From contig JBIIGV010000102.1 in NCBI GenBank assembly GCA_044236265.1, positions 1 to 10,061 of the forward strand: a DNA stretch of 10,061 nt, given 5' to 3'. Under the pieces are notes generated by a model. The model was not told the origin of the DNA. It worked only from the letters and a program-made list of their open reading frames with translations, and did not search any database. Shown here in pieces: positions 2,925 through 9,673 of this stretch. The translations under genes were made by a program, and so were the position numbers. How positions within the stretch are numbered: the stretch's first letter is position 1; every line of letters begins with the position of its first letter. The stretch comes from Oligoflexales bacterium (GTDB taxonomy: Bacteria; Bdellovibrionota_B; Oligoflexia; Oligoflexales; RGVZ01).

Positions 2925-2940
2925 CCTCTGAACAGAGGAG
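2925..2940 (+). promoter_or_regulatory. Shine-Dalgarno AGAGGAG of CheA-like gene, partly within a short hairpin
   Basis: CCTCT-GAAC-AGAGG (2925-2938) overlaps AGAGGAG (2934-2940), which ends 6 nt before ATG 2947. Confidence 0.55.
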
Positions 2941-2946
2941 TCCCGA

Positions 2947-4785
2947 ATGCAGGATCGCGAATTCTTAGCGATATATTTGGAAGAAGCGGCAGAACTATTG
3001 GCGCGCTGGGAACACATTTGTCTGACGATGGAGAATAGTCCGAGCGAAAGTAGCATGAACGCGTTATTTGGTACAGTCAACACGCTTAAAGAAGGATGTC
3101 TAAGCGTCGGACTTGGAGAGATGGGACTGTTCATGAAACAGATCGAAGATGGCATCCTCTTCCTGAAAAAAAATCCTGAATTCGCAAAACCTGCTGTGTT
3201 TGCAATTGTGCTAGATTGTCACTCGTGTCTGATCAACTGGTTCCGAAATTTAAAATCAAACCCAAATTTTGTTGACCCAGAGGCAGTTCACCATCAGAAG
3301 AGACTTCAAGCAGCTATCAGCACACCAAACCGCACAGCGCATATTCCTAGCTCAGCTGCAGTCGAGAAAATTGAGACACAACAACCAGATCTAAAGATCG
3401 AAATAATGGAACCTAAAGCTGACGAACTGGCGGTGCAGACAGTAAAATCTGTAAGTGCACCAATTGAGCCAGAACGTACGCAGCCCGTTCAAGGGCCGGT
3501 CACAGAAAAGACCTCGATTGTAAAAATCGTCGACGTTGATAAGGACAGTTCCGTCGTTTCACCGGAGATAAAAACCAAAGCTGGCAAGCAGACAAACCCT
3601 CAGCGCGCTGCAGCCCCAGCCAACAGCATTAGAGTCAACCTGGACAAAATCGATCAACTCATTCGAATGATCAGGGATATCTCAATCCAACACACTATGA
3701 TCACCCAAGCAAGCGTTTGTGATGAAATTAAAAACCCGATTACGAAAGAGGCGATCAATTCAACAGCAGAGATTCTGAGGGATCTTCAAAAACAGGCCCT
3801 CTCTCTGAAAACAAAGTCGGCGGCAAGCCTTCTTATCCGCGTTGAAAATGAAGCACGAGACACTGCAAAGTCACAGTCTAAACGTGTAAAAATCAAAACA
3901 ACGGGTGATCAATTTGAAATAGACCGTGAGGTCCTCGATGACGCAAAGATCCTATTGGTTCAGTTGACGTGCAATATCGTCGACCTTTGCATAGAGTCTG
4001 AATTGGCACGGAAAACGTCTCGAAAACCACCAGTCGCTAATCTACTTTTTGAGATCATACCATCAGCCAATTTTGTCCGCTTCAGGGTATCCCATGATGG
4101 ACAAGGCATATCGCCAATGGATGTCAGAGATATTGCCATCAAAAATCAGCTCATAACAGCAGATAAATTCAGTACAGCCGAGGAGGCTCTGAAACTTCTT
4201 TGCGTCCCTCACATTTCAAAAGAGACAAAATCCGACGAAGCAGACGCCAGAGATTCCGAACTTCTGAGCGTTGTAGACATGTTAAGAAAGCTGAATGCTA
4301 AGCTTACGATAAATAATTCGCATAAAAACGGCCCCACATTTGTCATGGAAATCCCCTGTAAAGCGCCAATGATTGACGCCATCATTGTCTCAATCGCTGA
4401 TCGTTATTATGCGGTGCCAATCACTGACGTCAGGGAAGTGGTGGATTTGAGCACATATGTTGCAGACCTTAGCGATACAAAACCACTAACAATTAACCTT
4501 CGTGGCGAGTCACTACCTTTATTACACCTAGAATCGCTTGAGGATTTTTCACCGGGAAAGGCTTCCAACTCAAGACTTGCCATCATTGCCTCCCAAAGCG
4601 ATTCGAATGTGGCATTTATGATCGACAAAATTGTAGGACAGCAAACCGTGGTTTATCAACAGTTCGACCCCGATGTTAAGTCCACTCCTGGGTACACGGG
4701 GACCACCGTTCTCACAAATGGTCATCCTGCAATAATTGTCGAGCCGTCGCTGATTCCAATAACAAGACTAAAAAGGGCCAGCTAA
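2947..4785 (+). CDS. cheA: CheA-like protein (Hpt - linker - dimerisation - HATPase-like - CheW domain), predicted catalytically inactive
   Basis: EFLAIYLEEAAELL Hpt start; ALFGTVNTLKEG (canonical FRxxHTLKG); SIRVNLDKIDQL dimerisation start; QLTCNIVDLCIE N-box; VSHDGQGI G1; GPTFVMEIP G3; CheW-like YAVPITDVREV...INLRGESLPLLHL...IDKIVGQQTVV...GYTGTTVLTNGHPAIIVEP. Confidence 0.88.
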   Translation: MQDREFLAIYLEEAAELLARWEHICLTMENSPSESSMNALFGTVNTLKEGCLSVGLGEMGLFMKQIEDGILFLKKNPEFAKPAVFAIVLDCHSCLINWFRNLKSNPNFVDPEAVHHQKRLQAAISTPNRTAHIPSSAAVEKIETQQPDLKIEIMEPKADELAVQTVKSVSAPIEPERTQPVQGPVTEKTSIVKIVDVDKDSSVVSPEIKTKAGKQTNPQRAAAPANSIRVNLDKIDQLIRMIRDISIQHTMITQASVCDEIKNPITKEAINSTAEILRDLQKQALSLKTKSAASLLIRVENEARDTAKSQSKRVKIKTTGDQFEIDREVLDDAKILLVQLTCNIVDLCIESELARKTSRKPPVANLLFEIIPSANFVRFRVSHDGQGISPMDVRDIAIKNQLITADKFSTAEEALKLLCVPHISKETKSDEADARDSELLSVVDMLRKLNAKLTINNSHKNGPTFVMEIPCKAPMIDAIIVSIADRYYAVPITDVREVVDLSTYVADLSDTKPLTINLRGESLPLLHLESLEDFSPGKASNSRLAIIASQSDSNVAFMIDKIVGQQTVVYQQFDPDVKSTPGYTGTTVLTNGHPAIIVEPSLIPITRLKRAS

Positions 4786-4909: not shown

Positions 4910-6601
4910 ATGAACCAAAACTGGGGCGTAAAATCTAGAATGTATGCCATGCTGGGCGGCTTGATTGCATTCGTCGCTGTTTGCGCATATTTTGTAACAG
5001 CAGACTTACTACGCCTGATGTCCGCCGTTGAAGACACAAGGCGCTCCAATGATTATCAGTATCTTACGAGTCAAGCCGACCTAGCGCTATCAGATCTAAG
5101 CATTCATGGTCTCGAGATGCTAAACGAGAGCCATGCGGATGATTTTAAGGGGTTCGAGAAATCTCGCTATGAAGCCCTGGCCCAATTCAAGGTCGTAATG
5201 GAAGGAAATATTGATAGGCTGACAAAAGATGCCGCCAGATTTGACGTGACCGCGTCAGCCTCCGGATTCAAAGATACGATGAATACATTGTATTCCGCCA
5301 TTGAGACTCTTGGGACTAGCGCGCGAACCCGACGATTAACTGAGGAAGACAATATAAAATTTGAAAAATCCATGCAGGATTTGCGTGCAAACGGACGCAA
5401 ACATCTAAATCAACTAATTGACGTCACCAGTGCAAACTTGATATCCGCCGTCGAGCGCCAGAAGGTTGCCAGTGAAAGTCTTCAAAAGACACTACTCGGA
5501 GTCATTCTCACAACTGTCTTCGTACTCATCGTATTCGGCGTTTTAAACGTACGGCGCATGCTTGGCATTCTGTCCAACGCACAGTCAACACTAGGTTCCG
5601 CGATTAAAGACATGACTCAAACAAGTGGCTTCCTATCGGAAGCCGCACAGAAGACATCGACATCTGCATCAAGCGTTAGCTCAAAGCTCGAAAGCTGCAT
5701 TGACACTCTATCTGATTTATCCTCAAGGCAACATCAAATTGATAAGCACAATTTGAAGGCAAAACATGCGCTTCGAGAAATTAACTCAAAAGTCGATGAG
5801 GTCAGTCGCCTCATTGGCACATTGAACAAATCCATTCAAAACGGGAAAAGTTTTCTGGACCGCATCGATCCACCTTCGCCGCCAGCACAAAATCTTAAAG
5901 CATGCTTACAGATGCTGGAGGATATTTCAAGAAAGAGTCAGCTTCTATCAATCAATGCCTCCATCGAGGCTGTCCGTGCAGGATCAAGCGGCAAAGGGTT
6001 TTCTGCGATTGCAAATGAGTTAAGCGTTCTCCATATTTTGAGCGGTAAAGTCATTAACGAGATGACTTTAGCTCTTCGCGAAACTCCATCACACGAACCG
6101 CATTTACAACACCAATTGACGTCCGAACTTGATAAGCTTGCAAAAATATCTTTCAGCGCCATTGAGCTTACAAACAACATTCGGCATACAACAGAATCTG
6201 TATTCGAAAAATCAGGCGAAATAGATCGCGCCCTACTCTCTCAACAAAGAGCCAGTCACTTCGTCGCGGATCTAGCGCATCATCTCAACAGGGATTACGA
6301 GATGATAAATGGGGCTGTGCGCGACAGCGCCCATCTAGGAACTCTGCTTATGAAACAATGCAAACAGATGCATTACGCTTCAGATCAATTCCAGGTTGTC
6401 TTGCATGGGGGAATTCCAATATCAAACCTTGCCGATATCAGGGAGCCGATCCCCGAGGCAAAGCCTAATGAAGCAGACCAGCAAGAGATTGACCCAAGAA
6501 TGGACAAAATACTAACGCTTGAGCCATCAGGCCCATCAGCCGATTTAAGCGAAAAAACTGACACACAGGATGACGAGCATTTCAAAAGCACTGGAAGCTA
6601 G
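4910..6601 (+). CDS. Methyl-accepting chemotaxis protein-like receptor (2 TM, helical periplasmic domain), divergent
   Basis: TM1 MLGGLIAFVAVCAYFVTA, helical periplasmic region of about 160 aa, TM2 LLGVILTTVFVLIVFGVL, and MCP hairpin tip SQLLSINASIEAVRAGSSGKGFSAIANEL (canonical [29 protein letters not shown]). Acidic, Pro-rich C-terminal tail. Confidence 0.88.
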   Translation: MNQNWGVKSRMYAMLGGLIAFVAVCAYFVTADLLRLMSAVEDTRRSNDYQYLTSQADLALSDLSIHGLEMLNESHADDFKGFEKSRYEALAQFKVVMEGNIDRLTKDAARFDVTASASGFKDTMNTLYSAIETLGTSARTRRLTEEDNIKFEKSMQDLRANGRKHLNQLIDVTSANLISAVERQKVASESLQKTLLGVILTTVFVLIVFGVLNVRRMLGILSNAQSTLGSAIKDMTQTSGFLSEAAQKTSTSASSVSSKLESCIDTLSDLSSRQHQIDKHNLKAKHALREINSKVDEVSRLIGTLNKSIQNGKSFLDRIDPPSPPAQNLKACLQMLEDISRKSQLLSINASIEAVRAGSSGKGFSAIANELSVLHILSGKVINEMTLALRETPSHEPHLQHQLTSELDKLAKISFSAIELTNNIRHTTESVFEKSGEIDRALLSQQRASHFVADLAHHLNRDYEMINGAVRDSAHLGTLLMKQCKQMHYASDQFQVVLHGGIPISNLADIREPIPEAKPNEADQQEIDPRMDKILTLEPSGPSADLSEKTDTQDDEHFKSTGS

Positions 6602-6635: not shown

Positions 6636-8537
6636 TTAAACAGTTACAGTTGGCTGCTCAACAATCGTGACGTCTTTTCGCGGAAGTGACCACGTTAGAC
6701 CCACCGGATATCCGGCGATCGTTGGCGGCAAGATTGAAACCTTTAGACCGTGAGCAGAAAGCATCTGCTTTGCCAAGTCGACATGGTAGAGCATCTCTCG
6801 GCTTGGCGCCTCTGGGATTTGATTATGTTGTTTTGAAGGAAGGGAAAGAATGATTGTCGCCTGATCTTTGAAGCGCTTCTGTCTCACCACAAGCGGTAGA
6901 CTGATCGACTTCAAATCAACGCCTGCCAAAAGCCCCAGGTATAGATGAAAGAAACCACTGACCATGACAGCCGATGAGACCGCTGGATACATTTCCTCAG
7001 GACTTCCAAGCTGAGGAAGAGTTTCGAAGGTCATCGTTTGAAACTTACCGTCAGCACCAACAAGCCTTTGCGCCGAAATCAAACACTGACACCAGTCAGA
7101 GGTCTTTTCTGATTTATCACGGGTCGCAATGCCGTGCCAAAGTGCCGCCAGTTTACTGACAGACTCACAATCGTCAATCGCTTGTCGAGCAAGCATGGCT
7201 GCATTAAGAGATTGATCCAAAGCGCCAGCCGTCAAATGATCAAGTTCGAGCATGTCATCGTCAAGTTTGGAGCGTCCAGGATACGCGCCCTTTGTTTCAA
7301 CCAAAGATCTGAAAAACTTACGAGCTGCAAGATCGCGGTTTGTCCCCTGACTAAGTCCTTCTTTCCAGCGACCGCAAAAATTCGCCAGAGATTTCGCTTG
7401 CACAGCAAGTCCGCTCGCTGCGACGTCGTAGATGTTTTCGCAGACTTCGCGCATCTGCTGCATTTGTCGCAAAAACGATGCTGATGTATGCTGAAGCTGC
7501 TCTTGCAAACTTGCCAGATCACTCATACTCACAAGTTTTGCCTCAAGATCAGCCATCTCTGTATCGCGCTCACGCAATCGTGTCGTCATACTCTCAATGC
7601 GATCTTTGAGAAGGCGCATCTGTTGGCCGCGATGCTCATCTTTTGCAGCAACAATTGATTGCGCCTGTTTCACAATCTGTGTCCATGTGAGCGTAACGCC
7701 TTGGGCCGTTGTATCTTCGCTAGCCTTGACGAGTTGATGTTCTTTCACCCATGTTTCGAGTGCCTGTCGCTCTTTCTCGTCTTCTCGCTCTCGGGCAGAA
7801 ACTTGGGCCAAAGCAATCACAATCAGTACGCCCAAGGCACCATACAACAGCCAAAAGCTTTCACGCTGCGTCCGTAGTGCAAGTCCCGTTAGATTAGGAA
7901 CAACGCGGTAGATCCATCCATCTACATACAGCGGAAGAGCGAAACGCCCATCCGTCATTCGCCCATCGCCCCAAAGCCTGGCACCCTTTGCGCCCAATCC
8001 AAAACCAATGTCACGTTGAGCCACTAGCTTTCCCACCGCTGGATACAAAGAAACCCACACCTGGTCGAATACAACCTGCGCTGCAGCAAAAACAGTACGA
8101 CCATCGAACTGTTTCGACACAACGGAAACCAATACCGCCTCATCCTGCTCATTCGTCTGCCAAACCAATGTCGGCTTGCCAGATTTCACGATTTGGCAAA
8201 GGTCACTCACCGGCTTACCAGTTTGCGGCACGCGCGCAATCAACTGGCAATCCGCGTCGAGGAGATCAATCTGCGTGACCTCTCCAGGTCTGATATATGT
8301 CTGAAGAGACTGCGAAACTGTATTGATGTTACCCAATGAAAAGTTTTGCTGAATCTGTAGATCAGCCAATGCACTCCAGGCGATTGCGCTGAGTCGCCCC
8401 CGGGTTTCACCAACAGCCGATGCAAATTGGGTGCGAATACCTGCGAGACGCTGCATCTCGTCATTGAAACCTCGATCCACCATCGTCATAACGCCGGTGA
8501 AGATGAAAGCAATCGGTAAAAGCCTGATGGCACGCAT
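6636..8537 (-). CDS. Membrane protein with sensor-histidine-kinase-like architecture, degenerate catalytic motifs (putative pseudokinase)
   Basis: ORF is open from 8588; ATG 8537 preferred (GGGGGA SD 6 nt upstream, followed directly by TM1 LLPIAFIFTGVMTMV). Extracytoplasmic region of about 200 aa, TM2 FWLLYGALGVLIVIALAQV, coiled coil ending LVSMSDLASL (cf. LVQSEKLASL before H-boxes), C-terminus LAKQMLSAHGLKVSI...GYPVGLTWSLP (cf. LAIVKRIVEAHGGRI...GTTFTFTLP). The CDS is secure; the product is an inference. Confidence 0.6.
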   Translation of the reverse strand: MRAIRLLPIAFIFTGVMTMVDRGFNDEMQRLAGIRTQFASAVGETRGRLSAIAWSALADLQIQQNFSLGNINTVSQSLQTYIRPGEVTQIDLLDADCQLIARVPQTGKPVSDLCQIVKSGKPTLVWQTNEQDEAVLVSVVSKQFDGRTVFAAAQVVFDQVWVSLYPAVGKLVAQRDIGFGLGAKGARLWGDGRMTDGRFALPLYVDGWIYRVVPNLTGLALRTQRESFWLLYGALGVLIVIALAQVSAREREDEKERQALETWVKEHQLVKASEDTTAQGVTLTWTQIVKQAQSIVAAKDEHRGQQMRLLKDRIESMTTRLRERDTEMADLEAKLVSMSDLASLQEQLQHTSASFLRQMQQMREVCENIYDVAASGLAVQAKSLANFCGRWKEGLSQGTNRDLAARKFFRSLVETKGAYPGRSKLDDDMLELDHLTAGALDQSLNAAMLARQAIDDCESVSKLAALWHGIATRDKSEKTSDWCQCLISAQRLVGADGKFQTMTFETLPQLGSPEEMYPAVSSAVMVSGFFHLYLGLLAGVDLKSISLPLVVRQKRFKDQATIILSLPSKQHNQIPEAPSREMLYHVDLAKQMLSAHGLKVSILPPTIAGYPVGLTWSLPRKDVTIVEQPTVTV

Positions 8538-8584
8538 GACGTGTCCCCCCATTCTTCGCACCAAGCGGCGAGGGTCGGTAAACT

Positions 8585-8610
8585 CCATCGGCGGGTGCTG
8601 AAATCGTTGA
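8585..8610 (-). promoter_or_regulatory. Sigma28-like promoter upstream of the kinase-like gene
   Basis: Minus strand TCAA(8610-8607)-N14-GCCGATGG(8592-8585). GCCGAT core present; spacing is one short of consensus. Confidence 0.4.
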
Positions 8611-9232: not shown

Positions 9233-9673
9233 TTAGTCAACGCGAATTCCAGCGCGCTCAAGAATATCTTTCAACTCCTTGCGCTGAGCTGGCTTAAGAC
9301 CTTTAGCGTTGCAAAGTTCAACCAGTGACTCACGGGCATTGCCGGTGATGTTCATGAACTCTTTGTCTTGAAGCATACGGAAGCGGCTCATCATGCGCTC
9401 AAATACTTCGTCGCGGTCAATATCAGCACCGGTTGACCACTTGCCTTTGCGCATAGCGTTTGTCGCCAGGGCTACAACGCGGCTGAAGCGAGCACCTTCG
9501 GTGCCGGAGCGACGGCTCTTGCCGGAACGCCCTTTAGCTCGCAGCTTTGCCAAAAGCTCGTCATAGGTAAATGCGAAATTGCTTTCGACTTCACGAAGCC
9601 CCAGCGGGGTATCTTGAACCGAAGACCAGATGATGTTGAGGGTATCGCCAGGGCGAAGCTCTACAGATGCCAT
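9233..9673 (-). CDS. Hypothetical cytoplasmic basic protein (146 aa)
   Basis: Strong SD GAGGAG 7 nt before ATG, biased codons (AAG, CGC, TTC, GGC frequent), own terminator, basic patch KLRAKGRSGKSRRS. No family recognised. Confidence 0.85.
   Translation of the reverse strand: MASVELRPGDTLNIIWSSVQDTPLGLREVESNFAFTYDELLAKLRAKGRSGKSRRSGTEGARFSRVVALATNAMRKGKWSTGADIDRDEVFERMMSRFRMLQDKEFMNITGNARESLVELCNAKGLKPAQRKELKDILERAGIRVD

Follow-up and report, generated by a model that had tools for sequence, protein, structure and literature searches.

Related systems

The nearest system in print to the gene described here is CheA3 of Cereibacter (Rhodobacter) sphaeroides, which has a degenerate, non-autophosphorylating kinase domain, keeps the overall structure and the CheW domain of a CheA, and sits in arrays (PMC10782961). 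The gene in question occupies positions 2,947 to 4,785 on the forward strand of a 10,061-nucleotide (nt) stretch of DNA from an Oligoflexales bacterium (assembly GCA_044236265.1, contig JBIIGV010000102.1), hereafter the window. It encodes a CheA homologue altered at both the phospho-acceptor site and the ATP site; homologues with such lesions are called dead below. We refer to the protein as CheA* (P0001), to the chemoreceptor encoded 3' of it as MCP*, and to the genome that holds the window as G000 (3.2 Mb, 89% complete).

CheA* resembles CheA3 in its degenerate kinase domain and its retained CheW-like domain. However, the first Hpt domain of CheA3 has a phosphorylatable His, and CheA3 is served by its operon mate CheA4, whereas the sole Hpt domain of CheA* is without this His. 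No partner kinase, CheW, CheR or CheB is encoded at the CheA* locus, where only an MCP follows. A second parallel is provided by plant AHP6 (His to Asn) and the rice PHPs (His to Gln), pseudo-phosphotransfer proteins that inhibit phosphorelays (PMC11497342). They share with CheA* and its relatives an Hpt fold without acceptor His and the same substitutions (Asn in P0001 and P0003, Gln in the G012 protein), although P0123 has Thr. They are stand-alone eukaryotic proteins, whereas the pseudo-Hpt of CheA* is fused to a dead P3-P4 and a CheW-like domain, and an inhibitory role of CheA* would follow from the conservation of its helices A and B. Hpt domains without His also occur within ChpA of Pseudomonas aeruginosa, which differs in being an active kinase; it carries six His-bearing Hpts next to the His-less ones, whose role is stated to be open (PMC10782961). 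DivL of Caulobacter is a bacterial histidine pseudokinase that acts by binding a response regulator (PMC4211667). In contrast to CheA*, which is class II, young, fast-evolving and so far known from one genus, DivL is a class I kinase conserved across a large clade.

In a survey of 13,673 CheAs, only CheA3 is singled out as kinase-dead, and its His is kept (PMC10782961). No naturally occurring CheA with both sites lost turned up in our literature search, although the supplementary tables of that survey may hold such proteins. A further candidate precedent (PMC11481889) was rejected, as it describes a hybrid kinase and not a CheA.

The closest sequences (31–33% identity) belong to operons of two congeners, G002 and G010, which encode CheAs of the same size and domain order and a related MCP, with a like promoter spacing in G002. 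They differ from the CheA* locus in having 16 of 16 key residues, a folded linker domain, cheW and cheR/cheB. These two CheAs were among the live orthologues compared, with P0126 as live modelling control; the dead relatives compared were P0002 (99% identical), P0003 (82%), the G012 protein (identical to P0122) and P0123. We compared 40 related genomes, with 12 other genus genomes for synteny around an anchor gene and 21 family genomes for presence of the dead form.

Domain organization and lesions of CheA*

CheA* is encoded by an open reading frame (ORF) of 612 codons and presents P1, P3, P4 and P5 in the order that defines a CheA (PMC10782961). The four domains are recovered in CheA order by Pfam, with H-kinase_dim and CheW matches (Table 1), while Hpt (21.6 bits, cut-off 24.6) and HATPase_c (18.2 bits, cut-off 26.4) both fall under threshold. 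The NCBIfam CheA models score 120–123 against cut-offs of 793–950. Asn45 (codon AAC) aligns on the phospho-acceptor His48 (AIFRAAHSIKG against ALFGTVNTLKE; E. coli 6s1k/8c5v, T. maritima 1b3q). The same position is Asn in P0003, Gln in the G012 protein and Thr in P0123. None of the four P4 boxes is intact: they read QLTCNIVDLC (N), HDGQG (G1), LCVPHISK (F) and DARDSELLSV (G2, in which none of the three Gly is left), and 8 of the 12 scored P4 residues are changed. The first Asp of G1 is the adenine-binding residue. Including these 12, we scored 16 key residues per homologue, under E. coli-style labels that we assume to be correct. Ten are changed in CheA*, 11 in P0003 and none in the closest intact homologues; among 149 scored profile matches, 126 have all 16 and 17 have 15.

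A comparison with the CheAs of E. coli and T. maritima confirmed every lesion listed in the original prediction; the 612-codon ORF is present as stated there, and Pfam recovers its recognizable dimerization and CheW domains. It had overlooked the residues that CheA* retains, namely Lys48 and Glu67 in P1, Asn343 and Asp346 in the N box, and Asp384, Gly385 and Gly387 in G1, the last of which is lost in P0003. We looked for another acceptor His in P1. His23 lines up with E. coli His26 rather than with His48, and the candidates at 23, 92, 115 and 116 are all missing from P0123, with none common to the dead relatives. The prediction had already dismissed a single sequencing error; sequencing or assembly error was rejected because P0002 and the 82%-identical P0003 carry the same lesions and because contigs of other studies agree: the pieces listed for runs X2 and X7, from two other studies, show 1 and 0 differences over the parts covered. 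Judged from its residues, CheA* would lack kinase activity.

Table 1. Features of the CheA* locus, in window coordinates.
Feature	Position	Strand	Basis
Doubly dead CheA (CheA*), 612 amino acids (aa), P1-linker-P3-P4-P5, no P2	2947..4785	+	ORF call, Pfam, PDB alignment, AlphaFold, fold matches
P1 (Hpt) without His; helices A-B are residues 1-56 (2947-3114), Asn45 at 3079-3081	2947..3330	+	Identity counts
Linker, predicted disordered	3361..3582	+	AlphaFold pLDDT (predicted local distance difference test) <50 for residues 139-212
P3 dimerization hairpin, eroded	3622..3804	+	Pfam H-kinase_dim 27.4 bits; conserved columns 6/12
P4 kinase-like domain, N/G1/F/G2 boxes degraded	3817..4356	+	Conserved columns 27/69; pN/pS 0.20-0.25
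P5 CheW-like domain, preserved	4378..4749	+	Pfam CheW 70.1 bits; conserved columns 16/19
Sigma28 (FliA)-like promoter, TATA-N15-ACCGATAG, ends 25 nt 5' of start codon	2895..2921	+	Predicted
Ribosome-binding site GAGGAG, 6 nt 5' of ATG	2935..2940	+	Sequence reading
Co-degenerate chemoreceptor (MCP*), 563 aa, with a preserved hairpin tip (about 5900-6049) and eroded methylation helices	4910..6601	+	Pfam, identity counts
Convergent 650-aa gene of unknown family; synteny anchor, outside the system	6636..8588	-	Match in 12/12 other genus genomes

Selection on CheA*

A single divergent strain, X12, could be compared with CheA* from contigs over codons 220–612. It shows 24 synonymous and 18 replacement differences, which gives a ratio of replacement to synonymous change per site (pN/pS) of 0.23–0.29 (binomial p 3e-6 to 5e-5). 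P4 alone has 15 synonymous versus 10 replacement differences, P3 has 3 versus 3 (not significant) and P5 has 6 versus 5 (p 0.03–0.06). For MCP*, 15 synonymous and 10 replacement variants were found among the 25 strain differences listed. In neutral simulations with point mutations and no indels, the frame stayed open in 9 of 2,000 runs at 82% identity and in none of 300 at 33%. Three deep dead lineages have kept the full frame over 1.4–6.7 changes per site.

A neutral pseudogene is ruled out by the pN/pS values and the simulation, and the frame is open in all homologues seen; neither a broken frame nor neutral evolution, the marks of a pseudogene, was found. CheA* combines lost catalytic residues with purifying selection, which are the attributes of a histidine pseudokinase. 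The original prediction spoke of a maintained pseudo-CheA, and this description stands, given purifying selection on P3–P5 and on P4 alone, the open frame, the kept sigma28-like promoter and the three dead lineages. Since selection still acts on a doubly dead gene, its product likely works without chemistry.

Conservation of the individual domains

Conserved columns were counted against 106 intact homologues. P5 keeps 16 of 19 columns in P0001, 17 in P0003, 18 in P0123 and 13 in the G012 protein (intact mean 15.9), and its four most conserved columns are kept in all four dead proteins. It is also the sole domain with a Pfam match in all four, with CheW scores of 70, 69, 81 and 46 in the same order and of 61 and 74 in the live orthologues. 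For the same four proteins, P4 keeps 27, 25, 17 and 14 of 69 columns (intact mean 61.6), P3 keeps 6, 6, 7 and 5 of 12 (10.3) and P1 keeps 18, 17, 19 and 15 of 28 (24.3).

In the complex CheA3P1-CheY6, P1 contacts CheY through helices A and B (PMC2817712). These helices are identical between CheA* and P0003 at 56 of 56 positions, with P0123 at 38 (68%) and with the G012 protein at 16 (29%). Live pairs share 34–38 of these 56 positions (61–68%). Between P0001 and P0123, identity in P3, P4 and P5 is 39, 29 and 35%. Conservation falls on P5, the receptor tip and the regulator-facing P1 helices, and not on the kinase core.

Structure predictions

The AlphaFold model of CheA*, computed from an alignment of 110 rows that are mostly live CheAs, contains four folded domains (mean pLDDT 84) and a disordered linker, and its best Foldseek matches are CheA structures. 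P1 is modelled as a helical bundle (pLDDT >85) and P3 as a helical hairpin. The former G2 loop lies inside one helix (residues 429–449), in contrast to the live control P0126, which is coil over that box; closure of the loop into a helix is thus predicted. In the model of P0126, by contrast with the disordered linker of CheA*, folded helices span 161–212.

Tandem LGxIL/VxxG repeats were observed in the P1-P3 linker of the live orthologues (L024:8466-10286, L025:516-2333), of P0126 and of dead P0123, where they are modelled as a folded helical domain. We take the LGxIL/V pattern to be an MshEN-like cyclic di-GMP motif; Pfam MshEN has no match in the linker of the live orthologues or P0123.

A weak docking of P5 on the MCP* tip is also predicted. 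The complex scores 0.48, versus 0.14 for the best control, with at least 96% of contacts shared between runs and a partner pLDDT of at least 69. The mark used for such scores is reached by 116 of 157 solved pairs and by 2 of 215 mismatched pairs, and it is reached at 0.60 or below by only 18 of the 157 solved pairs and by both mismatches. The prediction may reflect memory, because like complexes have already been solved (3ur1, 4jpb).

Origin of the locus

The CheA* gene is what is left of a compact cheA-cheW-mcp-cheR/cheB operon, which congeners still have in full. Its best matches in the 40 related genomes are CheAs of about 600 aa with all motifs intact, and the gene order in G002 is cheA-cheW-mcp-cheR/REC/cheB. 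The same two-gene remnant stands at the syntenic locus of G012, where neighboring proteins are 62, 74 and 100% identical to those of G000. The dead CheA of G012 is 23–27% identical to CheA* and has 50 residues of P4 deleted; its MCP is 21% identical to MCP*, has no Pfam match and has lost the tip too (23%). cheW is missing from both loci, and tblastn (E<=10) found no remnant of cheW or cheR/cheB beyond noise in the window or at the G012 locus. In G008, the anchor gene is accompanied, on a contig edge, by the terminal part of a cheR-cheB fusion, which shares 65% identity with that of G002 and has its catalytic motifs; in the remaining nine genus genomes, unrelated genes lie next to the anchor. 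In G011, contig C74 breaks off just past the anchor, within a direct repeat about 100 bases long (L040:5283-5532), where the operon would begin. The marker-gene tree is ((G000,G008),G012), with support of 98/96; cheR/cheB were therefore lost twice or regained once.

When 1.84 billion representatives were searched with a profile, a third dead lineage emerged, P0123 (33% identical, linker repeats kept). P0001 has long derived stretches in common with P0123. In a quick tree with long branches, built from 31 rows (4 dead proteins, 5 live CheAs from the genomes and 22 profile matches out of 149), all four dead proteins group on a single branch with a Shimodaira-Hasegawa-like approximate likelihood ratio support (SH-aLRT) of 96. 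The derived residues common to P0001 and the G012 protein (8 of 34 and 15 of 65) fall between two null expectations, and therefore do not settle whether G012 involves one death or two.

Searches for a wider family of dead CheAs gave few members. Word-based searches returned only P0002 and P0003, and the profile search, with 149 rows scored, P0122 (the G012 protein) and P0123; two further rows were without P1 through truncation and two had odd P1 columns but an intact P4. In contigs of genomes and metagenomes, pattern scans yielded only distant homologues of 20–29% identity (8 and 2 loci, respectively), and the Protein Atlas only generic CheA clusters. The stretch was present at half or more of its length in 10 of the 22 runs listed, mostly from lake water; no RNA run holding it was among them. 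With these queries, four genus genomes (G001, G004, G005 and G006; 91–95% complete) gave no match to CheA, CheR/CheB or MCP, and a loss of chemotaxis in this one subclade is possible.

MCP* and the neighboring genes

MCP* starts 124 nt after the CheA* gene. Its MCPsignal score is 52 bits, versus 113 for the G002 MCP. The tip is 54% identical to live orthologues (27 of 50 positions; 80% in the live pair), and the arms 14–21%, versus 37–42% between live pairs. This loss of the arms with the tip kept matches the loss of cheR/cheB. Despite that loss, the tail of MCP* (about 6565-6601, +) is similar to the acidic tails of intact relatives, which contain Phe, and might tether the cell's other CheR/CheB; MCP* and the G012 MCP share a KSTG ending. 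The periplasmic part (5006-5479, +) is 24% identical between G000 and G012, versus 21% between live orthologues, with a common DFKG motif. As it is as similar as in live pairs, ligand sensing may persist.

Further downstream, the 650-aa anchor protein is apparently membrane-anchored with a coiled-coil half, and it has one match in each other genus genome and no NCBIfam or real Pfam match. A 146-aa protein (9233-9673, -) has no known family, with a weak Pfam match only and a blank Protein Atlas result. It is 100% identical in G012 and 84–99% identical at the other genus loci seen, and is more conserved than EF-G or GyrB.

Promoter

A sigma28-like site is predicted in front of CheA* (Table 1), using what we take to be the sigma28 consensus. 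Like sites lie 21 nt before the start of the dead cheA of G012 and 24 nt before that of the live G002 cheA; none was found near the G010 cheA start. Such a site occurs in 97 of 20,000 random 250-nt windows and upstream of 9 of 2,396 G000 ORFs, including the CheA* gene and one MCP. G000, G012 and live G002 all retain it, with protein identity down to 23–31%. G000 has fliA. The assignment to the sigma28 regulon remains a prediction, because the full CCGATA core is present in just 1 of 8 flagellin upstream stretches of G000. A scan for sigma70 promoters and terminators showed no excess over shuffles.

Possible function of CheA*

P5 domains bind receptors and CheW (PMC6954272), and paralogues co-assemble in mixed arrays or baseplates (PMC6759762). 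The reading we favor, although we give it slightly less than an even chance, is that CheA* is an array-docked, non-catalytic decoy that lowers the output of live CheAs. CheA* would likely be made together with the products of the flagellar sigma28 regulon, and its place would be in chemosensory arrays, where P5 would likely be held at the receptor tips. Its His-less P1 helices would likely bind CheY/CheB-type regulators without phosphorylating them, and the result would be a non-catalytic brake that damps the cell's three live CheAs. Its mode of action would resemble that of the plant AHP6/PHP inhibitors, with P5 as the tether. Potential targets of a decoy exist in G000, which encodes three further CheAs with motifs intact where assembled (one ends at a contig edge), three other MCPs, CheW, CheV, eight flagellin matches, FliM/N and FliA, in addition to CheR and CheB. 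The original prediction had proposed an array scaffold, and this part of it is plausible, with P5 columns at live-CheA level and a neighboring receptor that keeps its tip. It had not recognized the remnant of a known operon, the co-degenerating receptor, the relaxed constraint or the high conservation of the His-less P1 face.

Several observations weigh against the decoy. P1 and P5 of CheA* are just 17–25% identical to those of the cell's live CheAs, and binding to the partners of these CheAs is therefore not implied. The 106 intact homologues were selected with a profile built from the dead proteins; this biases the column counts towards likeness in P1 and P5, and the 56 of 56 P1 identity to P0003 could reflect recent recombination. 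Constraint on CheA*, a figure that rests on one strain, is weaker than in eight ordinary gene pairs of the genus (pN/pS 0.02–0.22); it is therefore real but relaxed, by two- to four-fold. Since the G000-G012 split, CheA* has changed by 73–77% and MCP* by 79%, versus 4–9% for core proteins and 37% for the anchor, and the dead form is found in only 2 of the 21 family genomes. Finally, G012 has lost 50 P4 residues, the face of P1 (29% identity) and the tip of the receptor (23%). The decoy mechanism therefore cannot hold for the G012 lineage as stated; this lineage may be further on the path to loss.

A fuller version of the decoy, which we regard as rather doubtful, is that a whole operon became a two-gene, enzyme-free inhibitor within one genus, with the live ancestor still present in sister species. 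A receptor without adaptation sites would hold CheA* while P1 captures CheY/CheB, and this AHP6-like decoy would tune flagellar signalling, possibly under ligand control.

It is unlikely, but worth weighing, that CheA* is a scaffold only, with P5 as its sole working part replacing the deleted CheW and coupling MCP* to arrays while P1 does nothing specific. The CheW Pfam matches and top P5 columns kept in all four dead proteins, and the missing cheW at both syntenic loci, agree with this. However, it leaves unexplained why P1 helices A and B are the most conserved part in P0001, P0003 and P0123, and in G012 the receptor tip, the would-be partner of P5, is itself lost.

We likewise see only a small chance that the operon is in slow decay, being lost piecemeal, with two genes that have no positive role and stay open only because selection acts weakly against misfolded or truncated proteins made from a still active promoter. 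Loss has indeed been stepwise, beginning with the catalytic residues and followed by the linker domain (which P0123 keeps and P0001 lacks), cheW, cheR/cheB (on the species tree, twice) and, in G012, tip and lid. Between G000 and G012, dN is about 0.9–1.1 versus 0.3 for the anchor, and with dS near saturation the long-term dN/dS is about 0.45–0.5. The four genus genomes without any CheA match also fit such decay. Against it stand the full frame of three deep lineages and the 0 of 300 neutral runs, and the centring of conservation on binding surfaces; moreover, promoter loss or a deletion would be a cheaper way to shed a useless gene, and the promoter-like site is still there.

CheA dimers phosphorylate in trans, and the original prediction had suggested that CheA* acts as a dominant-negative subunit, heterodimerizing through P3 with a live CheA and silencing the dimer both ways. 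P3 is present and modelled as a hairpin, the double lesion suits a poison subunit and live CheAs exist in the cell. But this P3 is only 18% and 14% identical to those of the two live CheAs compared, C67 and C37 (30% between live G002 and C67), has lost 6 of 12 conserved columns and is not the best-kept domain, which makes the idea poorly supported and very unlikely.

Amides serve in catalysis in the CheZ, CheC and CheX phosphatases, and the His-to-amide P1 could in principle stand in for a missing CheY-P phosphatase, given Asn in P0001 and P0003, Gln in G012 and no CheX match in G000 (89% complete; CheC and CheZ were not searched). We consider this highly improbable, as P0123 has Thr, no acidic residue lies three or four places upstream of Asn45, and Asn and Gln codons are one base from His codons. 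Least probable of all is residual activity through Asn343, Asp346, Asp384, Lys48 and Glu67, all kept in P0001 and P0003, or through another acceptor His, since the G2 glycines are lost and their loop is a helix in the model where the live control has coil, no P1 His is common to the dead lineages, and P0123 and the G012 protein lose Asp346 and more.

Significance

CheA is generally regarded as a kinase by necessity. If our interpretation is true, a CheA that is dead at both sites and yet selected would mean that CheA can persist for its scaffold and partner-binding roles alone. The series from live orthologue to P0123 (with linker domain), CheA* (without it) and the G012 protein, within one genus, would allow the order in which a signalling machine becomes a pseudoenzyme to be studied. 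CheA* would also constitute a natural test of what a His-less Hpt domain does, the role that is stated to be open for ChpA.

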